The notes under the pieces were generated by a model. It made no database searches. It was not told where the DNA came from and saw only the letters and a list, made by a program, of their open reading frames with translations. DNA of 37,840 nt, taken from UHGV virus genome UHGV-0090851; one strand, written 5' to 3'. Below are positions 50-5,362 of this stretch, piece after piece (the stretch's first letter is position 1; each line of letters starts with the position of its first letter). The position numbers and the translations under genes were made by a program. This stretch comes from a virus.

Positions 50-1147
50 ATGGCGTACTATAACATAGAGAAACGACTAAAATCCGATGGCACACCACGC
101 TATCGCTGTAATGTGATTATCAAAGAAAAAGGTGTTATCACTTACAGGGAAAGCAAAACATTCCCTAAACATGCTCATGCCAAAACATGGGGCACACAGA
201 AAGTGATGGAATTAGATCTATATGGCATTCCATCATCAAATGCAGTTGACGGACTTACAGTCCGTGACTTACTACACAAATATTTAAATGACCCAAATGC
301 CGGAGGTAAAGCAGGCCGTACTAAAAGATATGTGCTGGAACTGCTTATGGATAGTGACATCTCCGCGATCAAACTATCTGAACTGACAGAAAATGACGTA
401 ATTGAACATTGCAGGCTAAGAAACAACGCTGGCGCAGGTCCAGCAACAGTCAGCCACGATGTTAGTTATCTTGGCAGTGTTCTGGATGCGGCCAAACCTG
501 TATACGGAATTAATTACACATCAAACCCGGCGAAAAGTGCTCGTCCATATCTACTTAAACTTGGTTTGATTGGTAAATCAAACCGTCGTAATCGTAGACC
601 AGCATCTGATGAACTGGACATGCTCATTGAAGGCCTTCAACAACGATCTACTCATAAATGCTCAAAAATTCCGTTCGTTGATATCCTCAAATTTTCTGTG
701 TGGTCCTGTATGCGAATCGGAGAAGTATGCCGGTTACGATGGGAAGATCTCGACCAGGAACAAAAATCTATACTCGTAAGAGACAGGAAAGATCCACGCA
801 AAAAGGAAGGCAACCACATGAAAGTAGCCTTGCTTGGGGAAGCCTGGGATATCGTCCAACGACAGCCCAAAAAATCGGAATTCATTTTTCCATATAACAG
901 CACTTCTATTACTGCGGGATTTCAGAGGGTAAGAAGCAAATTAGGTATTAAGGATCTGCGATACCATGATTTGCGTAGAGAAGGGGCAAGTCGCTTATTT
1001 GAGGCTGGTTTTAGTATTGAGGAAGTAGCCCAGGTTACAGGGCATCGTTCATTAAACGTGCTATGGCAGGTATATACCGAACTGTATCCGAAATCTTTAC
1101 ATAATCGTTTTGAAGAGCTCCAAAGGAGCAGAAATAAGACCCCTTGA
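50..1147 (+). CDS. Tyrosine recombinase / phage integrase
   Basis: 365 aa ORF with ATG at 50. C-terminal catalytic region HDLRREGASRLFEAGFSIEEVAQVTGHRSLNVLWQVYTELY fits the R..H..R..Y tyrosine recombinase signature. Confidence 0.88.
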   Translation: MAYYNIEKRLKSDGTPRYRCNVIIKEKGVITYRESKTFPKHAHAKTWGTQKVMELDLYGIPSSNAVDGLTVRDLLHKYLNDPNAGGKAGRTKRYVLELLMDSDISAIKLSELTENDVIEHCRLRNNAGAGPATVSHDVSYLGSVLDAAKPVYGINYTSNPAKSARPYLLKLGLIGKSNRRNRRPASDELDMLIEGLQQRSTHKCSKIPFVDILKFSVWSCMRIGEVCRLRWEDLDQEQKSILVRDRKDPRKKEGNHMKVALLGEAWDIVQRQPKKSEFIFPYNSTSITAGFQRVRSKLGIKDLRYHDLRREGASRLFEAGFSIEEVAQVTGHRSLNVLWQVYTELYPKSLHNRFEELQRSRNKTP

Positions 1148-1208: not shown

Positions 1209-1457
1209 ATGCGTATTGAAATCTGCATAGCCAAAGAAAAAATGACTAAAATGCCAACCGGTGCTGTGGATGCGTTAAAGGAAGAATTAACCCGACGCAT
1301 CAGTAAACGTTATGACGATGTAGAGGTGATCGTAAAAGCCACCAGCAACGATGGCCTTTCTGTTACACGCACCGCAGATAAGGATTCTGCAAAAACTTTT
1401 GTTCAGGAGACTCTGAAAGATACCTGGGAATCTGCTGACGAGTGGTTTGTTCACTAA
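1209..1457 (+). CDS. dinI: DinI-family DNA-damage-inducible protein
   Basis: 82 aa; MRIEICIAK...[33 protein letters not shown] matches the DinI/MsgA family; LexA boxes immediately upstream; ATG at 1209 with SD GAGGGA. Confidence 0.85.
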
Positions 1458-1600
1458 TTAACACGTAAAATCGGTAACGGCTGGAAATCATTCAATAATC
1501 GCACTATCGAAAGTTCGCCAGCCAGCCGCAGCACGTTCTTGCATACGACGTGGCTGCGGCTTCCAACATTAGACAAATAACTCTTTAAATTGCTTTTAAA

Positions 1601-1846
1601 TTATTTCGTTTGAATGCCAGTAACAGGAAATCGTTTATATAGGGTTGATATCCGATCTAACTTCCAGACAATCAACTCATCTCCACTTTTCATCACCGTA
1701 ATTAATTCCTTTAACACAGGGCGATTAGCTGTTCTGCCACTGGCATATTCTTCATAAATTCGCTCACAGCCAGCTGACTCAAGTGCAAGACGTTGCAACT
1801 CTGTATCCTGATGATTTGTTGATACACGAACATACCCGTAAATCAT
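1601..1846 (-). pseudogene. Truncated serine DNA invertase (Pin/Gin/Hin family), N-terminal remnant
   Basis: First ~65 aa (MIYGYVRVSTNHQDTELQRLALESAGCERIYEE...LIVWKLDR) match the invertase catalytic N-terminus including the active-site Ser motif, then the frame degenerates. Too little room before dinI (1457) for a full ~190 aa invertase. Confidence 0.7.
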
Positions 1847-1920
1847 GAGTGCTTCTCCTGTTGTAAAAACAGGAGAAGAGGCGAAATATCACCTGATTCA
1901 GAAAAATATTTCAAAGGTTC

Positions 1921-2415
1921 CTATGCTGGTTTTTCTGGCCACTCTGGCTTTGAGGTATCGACGCGCATCAGTAAGACCCGGTATTTTTTCCATTCTGACA
2001 AAGCGGCGGTTTCGTCTTCTGTCGCTATTCCCGCATCAACCGCATCCTGCCGCCATGCAATTTCAGAATCAGCTTTCAGCCTCAGGCTTGCCTTCATAGC
2101 CTCTGAATCAGCGATTAACTCGCTCTGCGATTTTTGATACTCGACCAGTTTTCCACCGATTAATCGCTGTTTATCTGTATCAATCGTTTCAGCATTAATC
2201 TCCACCACATAGAAGCCAGCAGGGTCAGGAAGGCTGGAAACATCGCGTGTAAACGCTGAAATACGGCCGTCATCGTCGTAGAGGATTTTTAGTGTATCTT
2301 CAGCAAAGTTATTCTGTTGCTCATACCAGTCGCCGTCTGCGTTTCTGGAATAGCTGACAGTGCCATATTTCAGATTATCTGGTGTGTAACGTTCAAATTT
2401 TTTACTGAGTGACAT
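1921..2415 (-). CDS. Tail fibre assembly protein (Tfa-like chaperone)
   Basis: 164 aa, directly downstream of the tail fibre gene with a 14-nt overlap; C-terminal region typical of Tfa proteins; ATG verified at 2413-2415. Confidence 0.75.
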
Positions 2416-3310
2416 TGACCCATGCTCCGTTAATGTAAGCCTGAAGAGTTGCGACTTTTACTTTGTTAAGTACCCACGCACCACCACCTGGCGTCGGGGT
2501 GATATAAATACCCACAACCATTTCACTAGTTGTGAAATTCATCCAGGCATCTGCAGTCGTAACAGTTACTTCTCGGGGCGCAGAAAGGCGCAATGCTGAA
2601 ACCGACTCGCCCGCCAGAGCCATTGTCCCTGCTTTATCTGGGATGATAATTGCCTTACCGTTAATCCCTGTAATGGTCGCCTGGTTGTTCGTGGAATAAA
2701 TACCAACACGGATAATATTATTGCTGTCCGTAACCTCTAATCCGTATCTGCATGAAAGTGCGTCAGATAATGATTGTTTCGTGCTGGCGTCCGTAATGAC
2801 GTAGTTTCCTTTCGGTTGCAATTTATCAATACCGAAAGCGGCTTTAACTCCATCAACAGTCGTTTGACCTGTCCCCCCTTGTGTGACAGGTAGAGCGATA
2901 GCGGCTCCGGTGTCGTTATTCCACATTCCCCAACTGGTGTTCGACACCAGGAGAAATTTTTTCAAATCAGGAGAGAAAATCTTCGTGGATACAGGGTCGG
3001 GTTTAATGGTCTGCAATCCAAGGTTTTCGAGAGCTGTTTTCACCGTGCCATCCGATTTGATATCGCCAAACGGATTCTTGCGGCTTAACAGCAGCGCGCG
3101 AAGTGCGGTAAGTAACTGGTCGTGCCGCCCCTTCTCCAGGCTGGCACCGGATGCCTCCACCACGCTGCAAAGTTCCTCCTGCAACATGTCAAAGTAGTCA
3201 TCATCCAGATCGGTGGCAGGCGTGCCGGTCTGGGGGTTACCACGGGTAAAACCGTTCTTACCCGCGCCGAACTTATCCTTCTGCGCGGTTTTCGTGTCTA
3301 TACGATGCAT
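2402..3310 (-). CDS. Tail fibre protein (short, receptor-binding part)
   Basis: 302 aa, Gly/Thr/Asn-rich C-terminus, placed between the baseplate gp48-like gene and Tfa; ATG verified at 3308-3310. Confidence 0.7.
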
Positions 3311-3313
3311 GGA

Positions 3314-3898
3314 TTACTCCGGATATTTAAAAATTACGTAGGTATGCGACGGGCAGAGTTTGTTAAGCACGCACTCGACAACGGTGTCCCCCCAGATACG
3401 CAGTGCGGAATCACAGGGATCGCCACATGTCATCCAGGTGGTGTTGGTGGCGGCTGGCATGTTGACCTGCCAGTAATACCGCCATTCCGGCGCATTCACC
3501 GCGTCAGTACAGGCCGATGAGCAGGTGAACGTGCTTTTGTCGTATCGCGTGATGGTAGCGTCTGGTCTGCCCAGGGCAGCAAGCTGTGCAAGGTAAAAAT
3601 CCTCATTGATGCCGCCCGCCAGGTTAACCTTCGCATCCAGTCGTTGCTGACGCTGGCGAAGGGTCTGTGTCCCTGCGGGAATACATTCATCCGGCAGGCC
3701 GCACAGACGCTCCCAGCGATTTATCAGTTCGGTGGTGGTGCGCGGATCCAGCTCCCGCATCAGGGCATCCGCACGCTGATGAACACGAGTTAATGACGGT
3801 GCCGCACCGGCAATCGCCGGATCGCTGGCTGACCACGCCGGACCGGGCGGCAGCAGTGCCGACAACAGACGGATGTAATCATCGTTTGTCACGTCCAT
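3314..3898 (-). CDS. Baseplate/tail protein, Mu gp48-like (DUF2313, YmfQ-like)
   Basis: 194 aa; position immediately after baseplate J; sequence reminiscent of the YmfQ/gp48 family. Confidence 0.65.
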
Positions 3899-4947: not shown

Positions 4948-5362
4948 GCGTTATCGCACTCCACAGATCATCAAAAGAAATCATTACCGGTCCGTCACGA
5001 CGCCAGAGAGTGATACTGTTACCCAGTTCATTAATCCCGGTGCGGCGGATATCCAGATCAATACGGGACACCACGCCGTCATCAATCATCCATTGCAGGC
5101 ATTCGCGGATATACCCCCTTACCGTCTGCACCAGCTGATTGGTCAGTTTGCTGCGCTGAAGCAGCCACAGCCGGGAGCCGTAACGGTCATTCTGTACCGC
5201 AGGCCAGGTATCCCCCCACCATCCCATCGGGACGTCGGCGTTGTCATCAGGCTCCGCCCGCCGCCAGGTAAACAGGGAAATCACCACGGCGCGGGTCAGC
5301 GGATCCAGCGGTGCGCTGGCGCAGGTGCGTTTACCGTTCACCGTCAGCCACAGTTCCATCAT
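4934..5362 (-). CDS. Baseplate protein (Mu gp46 / GP46 family)
   Basis: 142 aa between the spike and J genes; overlapping start/stop with neighbours. Confidence 0.65.
   Translation of the reverse strand: MMELWLTVNGKRTCASAPLDPLTRAVVISLFTWRRAEPDDNADVPMGWWGDTWPAVQNDRYGSRLWLLQRSKLTNQLVQTVRGYIRECLQWMIDDGVVSRIDLDIRRTGINELGNSITLWRRDGPVMISFDDLWSAITHGGQ

Follow-up and report, generated by a model that had tools for sequence, protein, structure and literature searches.

The locus considered here lies near one end of a virus genome and places, between a dinI-like gene and a set of tail-fibre genes, a short open reading frame related to DNA invertases of the Pin/Gin type. The initial annotation had read it as an N-terminal stub of about 65 residues abutting dinI, and had proposed that the host-range switching module was deleted and the fibre locked in one orientation. 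The questions raised by the locus are how the invertase was lost and whether the fibre can still be switched.

The window (the whole stretch of DNA analysed, UHGV-0090851, 37,840 nucleotides, ~37.8 kb) is an apparently complete temperate prophage integrated at dusA. It has lambdoid early and lysis genes, Mu-like tail genes and the architecture of phage SKA5 (OR670062). SKA5 covers 56% of the window at 94–100% identity, with mosaic gaps; the integrase-dinI-invertase block is 100% identical and the baseplate genes are 98% identical. Judged from relatives, the window starts ~40 bp from the dusA start. The normal right-to-left order in prophages of this type is fibre, tfa, the invertible segment, invertase, dinI and integrase; in the left part of the window, the fibre gene is followed by baseplate genes resembling Mu gp48 and gp47. 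The features of the region are the following.

50–1147, plus strand: tyrosine integrase of a dusA-inserting prophage, at the prophage left end (Pfam Phage_integrase, E 1.6e-20; adjoins dusA in relatives).
1209–1457, plus strand: dinI-like gene, 82 aa, convergent with the invertase remnant (PF06183, E 1.1e-19; annotated as DinI-like in relatives).
1458–1600, no strand: native 143-bp spacer from dinI to the invertase stop codon, outside the lesion (same length and sequence in relatives with an intact gene).
1601–1846, minus strand: invertase pseudogene, an 81-aa in-frame ORF (Pfam and alignment to intact relatives).
1649–1650, no strand: deletion junction, 318 bp absent, with a 2-bp 'TA' microhomology of both flanks (mapped against L001 and nine other intact relatives).
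1852–1878, minus strand: perfect 11-bp stem closing a 5-nt loop, directly 5′ of the invertase ATG (inverted-repeat scan and RNA fold).
1885–1914, minus strand: weak sigma-70-like promoter match, a possible invertase promoter (TTGAAA, 18-nt spacer, GATATT), overlapping the outer half-site.
1906–1931, no strand: remnant of the invertase-proximal crossover site, between tfa and the invertase start (end of SKA5 homology; alignment to Mu gixR).
1921–2415, minus strand: tail-fibre assembly (chaperone) gene tfa, 164 aa, in a single cassette (Pfam Caudo_TAP, E 1.4e-24).
2402–3310, minus strand: tail-fibre gene, 302 aa, with Sc as residues 1 to ~97 and Sv after the crossover core (ORF and site coordinates).
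3008–3033, no strand: remnant of the Sc-side crossover site, inside the fibre gene (SKA5 homology resumes at 3014; homology to the M172-1 cassette ends at 3024).

The assignment of the remnant at 1601–1846 (minus strand) to the Pin/Gin type was borne out. Its 81-aa ORF matched the Resolvase family (PF00239, E 2.4e-18) through residues 2–67, corresponding to model positions 1–76 of 145, a match well beyond chance. Alignment to Gin, named at the outset as a check, revealed that an intact 187-aa relative is colinear with Mu Gin (PDB 3UJ3, 4M6F) over residues 1–181 (E 1e-56). Measured against such a 187-aa Gin/Pin-family invertase, the ORF consists of residues 1–66 joined in frame to residues 173–187 and followed by the native stop codon. 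The remnant is thus not an N-terminal stub, as initially described, but a gene with an internal deletion of 318 bp. As had been anticipated, a full-length invertase cannot be rebuilt by a single frameshift: tblastn with a full-length relative against the whole 37.8-kb window found only residues 1–66 and 172–187, both at the remnant locus, and detected no second serine recombinase.

The lesion was mapped against relatives that keep the gene. Megablast of positions 1100–2500 against 5,426 complete E. coli genomes gave matches of which the top 30 listed all align in two pieces and extend over 318 bp more than the query. Against E. coli FG31-1 (L001) and phage SKA5 (L002), a single gap is placed at window position 1649/1650. 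The missing 318 bp are internal and in frame and amount to 106 codons (residues 67–172); in ten intact relatives the flanks of the missing segment read GATCGGA TA GGGAG and TTGGGC TA TCAACC. Both ends of the gene are kept, namely the 5′ 198 bp and the last 15 codons with the native stop, and the distance to dinI is 143 bp both in the window and in relatives with an intact gene. The stretch 1458–1600, which had been taken to show that the stub abuts dinI with no room for the rest of the gene, is this unchanged native spacer. By alignment, the gene has lost its interior, with no truncation from the dinI side, and dinI is a bystander. The dinI-like product itself matched PF06183 over the full length of the model (positions 1–63 of 63).

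A single deletion entering from the dinI side could have taken away both the second cassette and two-thirds of the invertase at its 3′ end, and left a stub abutting dinI; the restriction of the Pfam match to ~66 N-terminal residues and the presence of one cassette only would fit such an event. The alignment already refutes it, however, since the terminal codons, the stop and the spacer are intact and identical to those of relatives. The second cassette would, moreover, sit on the opposite side, upstream of the ATG, and single-cassette relatives carry an intact invertase. We regard this course of events as highly improbable.

The deletion allele is not peculiar to the window. The exact 81-aa protein is present in a collection of ~15 billion proteins and is encoded by ~15 contigs from independent ENA and Logan samples, produced by different assemblers, with identical junctions; the contig ERZ27256525 k119_82017 shares 7.8 kb with the window at 100% identity. 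None of the complete RefSeq E. coli genomes among the 30 top matches listed carries the deletion, which is what an assembly or sequencing artefact would predict, but given the recurrence of the same junctions in independent data we assign an artefact a negligible probability. Besides the deletion, no more than 2 SNPs over ~6.3 kb separate the window from its nearest intact relative, the complete genome L024 (GCA_949767935.1), which argues that the invertase was lost recently. The deletion is thus recent and confined to one lineage. In one Logan contig (SRR18271157, L005, 4489–6246) the 81-aa allele is found together with tfa and Sv on another baseplate backbone (Baseplate_J of 399 aa, Phage_Wedge1), the switch of backbone in the fibre lying ~25 codons before the crossover core. 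Homologous recombination has therefore already moved the deleted module.

In the Gin alignment, the remnant retains the Ser9 nucleophile, Asp64 and Arg65. It is devoid of Arg68, the remaining catalytic domain (67 to ~99), the oligomerisation helix and nearly all of the helix-turn-helix (HTH). Accordingly, the catalytic domain that defines small serine DNA invertases is represented by a partial PF00239 match with Arg68 deleted; helix E, responsible for dimer/tetramer oligomerisation, is absent together with residues 67–172; and of HTH_7, detected as PF02796 in intact relatives, the last 15 residues of the protein (STLYKRFPVTGIQTK) alone remain, and the window ORF gave no Pfam match to it. A fragment of this kind would not be expected to dimerise, bind the crossover site or catalyse exchange. 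Given the loss of the second catalytic arginine, of the oligomerisation helix and of nearly the whole HTH, we infer from established serine-recombinase structure-function relationships that the 81-aa product is recombination-dead and cannot recombine DNA. In annotation, the ORF should be labelled as an invertase pseudogene with an internal deletion and not as a "recombinase family protein".

The region upstream of the remnant was scanned for expression signals. The promoter scan returned 4 sigma-70-like sites against 2.4 expected in shuffled sequences, a number not significant on its own. The leader hairpin at 1852–1878 has a folding energy of −15.4 kcal/mol (z −4.0), with 0 of 200 shuffles as stable, and probably limits invertase translation, because its 3′ arm contains the AGGAG ribosome-binding sequence (RBS). 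Stems of different sequence were noticed by eye at the same place in other invertase leaders, ATCCCC…GGGGAT in the P2-like L040 and TTCCTG…CAGGGA in the pinE leader of L020. RNAalifold applied to six invertase leaders, whose alignment is poor, did not recover the RBS hairpin. Taken together, the leader stems suggest a conserved translational brake on invertase expression.

A second, GC-rich hairpin (AGCCGCAGC…GCTGCGGCT) lies at ~1524–1561 in the spacer, where the convergent dinI and invertase genes meet, and is kept in all relatives, including those with an 88-aa stub (described below). It folds at −23.4 kcal/mol (z −2.0) when read as plus strand and at −30.9 kcal/mol (z −2.6) when read as minus strand. 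A terminator scan did not call this hairpin, which has no T-run; from its fold and position it is probably a shared bidirectional terminator. An Rfam scan of 1100–2100 gave sub-threshold matches only. They include IS009 at 1949–2100 (minus strand, 3′ part of tfa; 32.6 bits against a gathering threshold of 117, E 1.3e-5) and CssrB at 1527–1582 (minus strand, over the spacer hairpin; 22.4 bits against 76), and probably reflect Rfam seeds taken from prophage tfa and dinI neighbourhoods.

Loss of an invertase beside dinI has occurred in at least three independent events in related prophages. An allele with an 88-aa stub, far commoner than the 81-aa allele, is carried by lambdoid and Mu-tail prophages of E. 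coli and Salmonella, with over 100 contigs found, and also by the isolated phage phi458 (OP434518) and by NZ_CP191548. Counts of complete genomes at ≥80% coverage are not counts of stub alleles, since two-piece matches to intact genes are merged in them. In L012–L017 and L019 (~5001–5267 or 3329–3529) the 88-aa stub lies 46 bp from dinI. Alignment to the intact pinE beside dinI in L020 revealed that the stub results from a 344-bp deletion that begins at codon 68 of a pinE-type gene and ends in its stop-codon region. The stub ORF does not rejoin the native C-terminal frame and continues into the spacer. The 5′ 186 bp of the allele are mosaic, being Cin/PinE-like or identical to the window gene. 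The 88-aa and window alleles share their position (site, stub, dinI) and the N-terminal 60-odd residues, and their 5′ breakpoints are ~7 bp apart. The two are nevertheless independent events. The 88-aa-stub loci also keep a second cassette as well as a full crossover site, neither of which the window has. These loci are candidates for inversion in trans. A 3′ breakpoint common to both alleles, considered because the motif TATATAAA comes after both junctions, was rejected, the L020 alignment showing that the 88-aa deletion ends in the stop-codon region.

The third loss was found in a Mu-tail lineage (L032–L036, L038 and L039; 3956–4080), in which the same cassette is present with an outer half-site AA CGTTTACGAAAA and without an invertase gene; dinI follows ~69 bp after tfa. 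Selection for the retained 5′ ~200 bp, as an enhancer, was considered as an explanation of the stubs and is weakened by this whole-gene loss, only two stub events being available; we do not take the closeness of their 5′ breakpoints as a sign of it. The same lineage bears on the idea that selection maintains the 81-aa product as a small protein, one that might for instance inhibit co-resident invertases. The in-frame deletion, the intact promoter-like site, RBS hairpin and start codon, and the independent stub allele that breaks within ~7 bp on the 5′ side would agree with such a function. Yet a deletion is in frame by chance in 1 case of 3 and the 88-aa allele is not in frame, the allele of the window is both rare and very young, the product has no dimerisation helix with which to poison a partner, and the third lineage dispensed with the entire gene. 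A selected product is, in our judgement, very unlikely.

We then turn to the substrate of the lost enzyme. On the plus strand, the site at 1906–1931 reads ATATTTCAAAGG TT CCTATGCTGGTT. Its outer half (1906–1917) and core (1918–1919) are as in functional relatives, the outer half being one base away from the functional SKA5 site; the inner half (1920–1931) is the 3′ end of tfa including the stop codon and agrees with the half-site consensus at 4 of 12 positions. The site at 3008–3033 reads GGTCTGCAATCC AA GGTTTTCGAGAG, with 9 of 12 consensus positions in the outer half (3022–3033) and 5 of 12 in the inner half (3008–3019). The register was confirmed by alignment with Mu gixR-gin. Homology between the window and SKA5 ends between 1919 and 1920 and resumes at 3014, which corresponds to the central dinucleotides of the two sites. 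No gix-like site was detected by scanning around 1600–1650, one of the places named for a search at the outset, and no further crossover site was found in the 37.8-kb window; at both 1906–1931 and 3008–3033 the outer halves alone are consensus-like. Within the fibre gene, the other place named, the site is a remnant.

In SKA5, two tail-to-tail Sv-tfa cassettes occupy 1.8 kb between inverted full sites, TTCTCCCAAACC AA GGTTT. The window contains one 1.1-kb Sv-tfa cassette between the two cores, and the initial statement that a second inverted tail-fibre cassette is missing holds. The two complete inverted sites that delimit an invertible tail-fibre segment are likewise absent, the inner halves being degenerate. 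As read from these sites, the single cassette is predicted to be non-invertible, since only outer half-sites survive. The longest inverted repeat in 1400–3500, a 24-nt pair at 1889–1912 and 2951–2974 with 75% complementarity, was rejected as a site pair: by our estimate 2.1 kb of AT-rich DNA should contain ~1 such pair by chance, and one arm is constant in all relatives and lies outside the true site.

The arrangement is that of the G segment of Mu with Gin, a system whose enzyme is interchangeable with P1 Cin, e14 Pin and Salmonella Hin. The gene order (Sc, site, Sv-tfa, site, invertase), the spacing of ~70 bp between site and ATG and the sequence of the half-sites are the same. Unlike the Mu system, the window has lost invertase residues 67–172, contains one cassette and outer half-sites only, and permits no inversion in cis, nor was any observed. 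The ancestor is a standard host-range switch of the Gin/Pin/Cin type, and the present locus falls short of an active member in its incomplete catalytic domain, the lack of helix E, of an HTH domain and of complete sites, and its one cassette and one orientation.

The relative order of the two losses is given by other phages that carry the same cassette. An identical 302-aa fibre and 164-aa tfa are found beside an intact 187-aa invertase in most contigs and in the prophages H1–H3. The combination of a single cassette with an intact invertase is present in near-identical dusA prophages (H1–H3, L022–L024, L026–L031), in a prophage of another baseplate type adjoining yciI (M172-1, L044), and, with invertases of 180–197 aa, in P2-like prophages (L037, L040–L045). 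Loss of the second cassette thus predates the deletion in the invertase and is widespread. The comparison with intact relatives, which the initial annotation had named as a check, speaks against part of its own reading: dinI is uninvolved, both gene ends and the spacer are kept, and the loss of the cassette is older than the deletion. In L001 (NZ_CP142680, 4635–5529), RefSeq gives the fibre as a pseudogene of 99 aa, 'stfP, incomplete', with 600 bp left without annotation; the fibre ORF there is in fact intact, 302 aa long and colinear with the window fibre.

The history that we favour, with a probability of roughly 0.88, consists of two events, an older cassette replacement followed by a recent 318-bp deletion in an invertase without a substrate. 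In the older step, whose cause we infer, a two-cassette invertible segment would have been replaced by a single Sv-tfa cassette with borders on the 2-bp cores. This would have left outer half-sites alone, abolished inversion and fixed the fibre in the expressed orientation. In the recent step, seen directly in the alignments, illegitimate deletion between two 'TA' dinucleotides removed codons 67–172. Because the invertase had no substrate in cis, neutral decay is the simplest reading of its loss, with dinI and the spacer not involved. The locus is an ordinary, well-precedented pseudogene in an already fixed fibre locus.

To look for the alternative orientation, the inverted configuration was built in silico. 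It fuses Sc to a 59-aa tail encoded antisense to tfa, yielding a 156-aa product, and its predicted junctions are GAAAACC TT CCTATGCTGG and TGCAATCC AA CCTTTGAAAT or, in longer form, …CTCGAAAACC TT CCTATGCTGGTTTTTCTGG… and …GGTCTGCAATCC AA CCTTTGAAATATT…. Two allelic versions of the inverted-state fusion protein were absent among ~15 billion proteins, a collection in which at least 45 contigs encode the exact normal 302-aa fibre. A k-mer search with a 66-aa tail returned zero candidate proteins, there being too few shared 5-residue words. The inverted junction was also absent from IMG/VR, a search of low power, as the normal junction itself was found there once. All 24 contigs read with the exact fibre, including those with an intact invertase, have it in one orientation. 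The two orientations were thus not found side by side in consensus assemblies and called proteins, data in which a rare subpopulation would be missed. Together with the degenerate inner half-sites, the failure to find the inverted form supports a fibre that is probably fixed in the expressed orientation. The early proposal of a deleted switching module and a locked fibre therefore stands as regards the single cassette, the one orientation and the lack of an inverted form in the public data searched; it does not stand as regards a single deletion, two separate events being indicated.

The retained part of the invertase gene includes the region at the distance expected for a Fis enhancer (window ~1753–1820), in which GTGTATCAACAAATC aligns with the homologous stretch of Mu gin; the Fis motif is too weak to call. 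The Hin enhancer is located ~100 bp from the site and is 65 bp long (PMC3798978), and the retained 5′ 198 bp cover the position of the Hin/Gin enhancers. The remnant DNA may keep some role in cis, for example as an enhancer.

A related case is prophage Phi4 of E. coli EC958, whose DNA invertase is truncated and has no HTH domain (Forde et al. 2014, PMC4134206). Like the window, it combines an E. coli prophage tail-fibre locus with an invertase minus its HTH, and such remnants have therefore been described already. Unlike the window, Phi4 retains two cassettes between full 26-bp sites, and its segment still inverts, presumably by trans action (PMC4134206).

It may be asked on these grounds whether the window locus is still switchable, a Pin-family invertase acting in trans on the sites with the help of the retained Fis enhancer and the OFF state being Sc with a 59-aa junk tail. 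The inversion of the Phi4 segment despite a truncated invertase (PMC4134206) and the action of PinQ on e14 (PMC12529663) are precedents; in the window, the enhancer position is retained ~98–165 bp from the site centre and the core dinucleotides of the two remnants, TT and TT, are compatible. On the other hand, the inner half-sites agree with the consensus at no more than 4 and 5 of 12 positions, no inverted state turned up in the data searched, not even among the many relatives that have an intact invertase in cis, and a further lineage did away with the gene altogether, enhancer region included. Switching in trans is improbable in our view, and we retain the reading of an older cassette replacement followed by a recent deletion.

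The cassette itself turned out to be widely distributed. The Sv-tfa cassette with the 164-aa tfa (window 1920–3019) is core-exact in at least five contexts (including L011, L037 and L040–L045), on both P2-like and Mu-tail backbones. Its end points are identical across contexts, …ACC TT / GGATTGCAGACC… at one side and …CCAG(C/A)ATAGG / AA C… at the other (slashes mark the end points). The Sc-side outer half-sites differ with context (CTCTCGAAAACC, CTCTCTCAAACC, TTCTCGCATACC, TTCTCACATACC and CTCTCACAAACC), as do those on the invertase side (CCTTTGAAATAT, CCTTTTTTATAA and CGTTTATGAAAA), and the invertase beside the cassette is one of four types (180–197 aa) or absent. Borders that are exact to the core suggest that the module was made or spread by a site-specific event at these cores. 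In at least one context (L005), ordinary homologous exchange took place further upstream in Sc.

Cin is known to recombine a true site with a poorly matching quasi-site to give hybrid sites, as summarized in the citing paper (Iida and Hiestand-Nauer 1986/1987, cited in PMC4134206). The products of that reaction are joined at the central dinucleotide, which is the pattern at both borders of the window cassette; in the window, an invertase may have made these borders. We can tentatively imagine, though we consider it rather less than an even chance, that the Sv-tfa cassette is a portable unit and that Pin-family invertases occasionally exchange or delete cassettes via quasi-sites, producing dead-end loci in which the invertase repeatedly decays. 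If anything here is new, and then only mildly, it is the core-exact portability of the single cassette between unrelated phage backbones. Truncated prophage invertases and trans-acting Pin enzymes have been published already.

For the biology of these phages, the fibre locus of the window is to be treated as non-switching, and the induced prophage is predicted to make virions of a single receptor specificity. The window and its near-identical intact relatives provide a dated example of the loss of a host-range switch, in which the cassette went first and the enzyme after. If cassettes are indeed exchanged via quasi-sites, the window would be the last and youngest step of a recurrent one-way path from switchable to fixed host range, and the core-exact borders hint that invertases may move fibre modules between unrelated phages.
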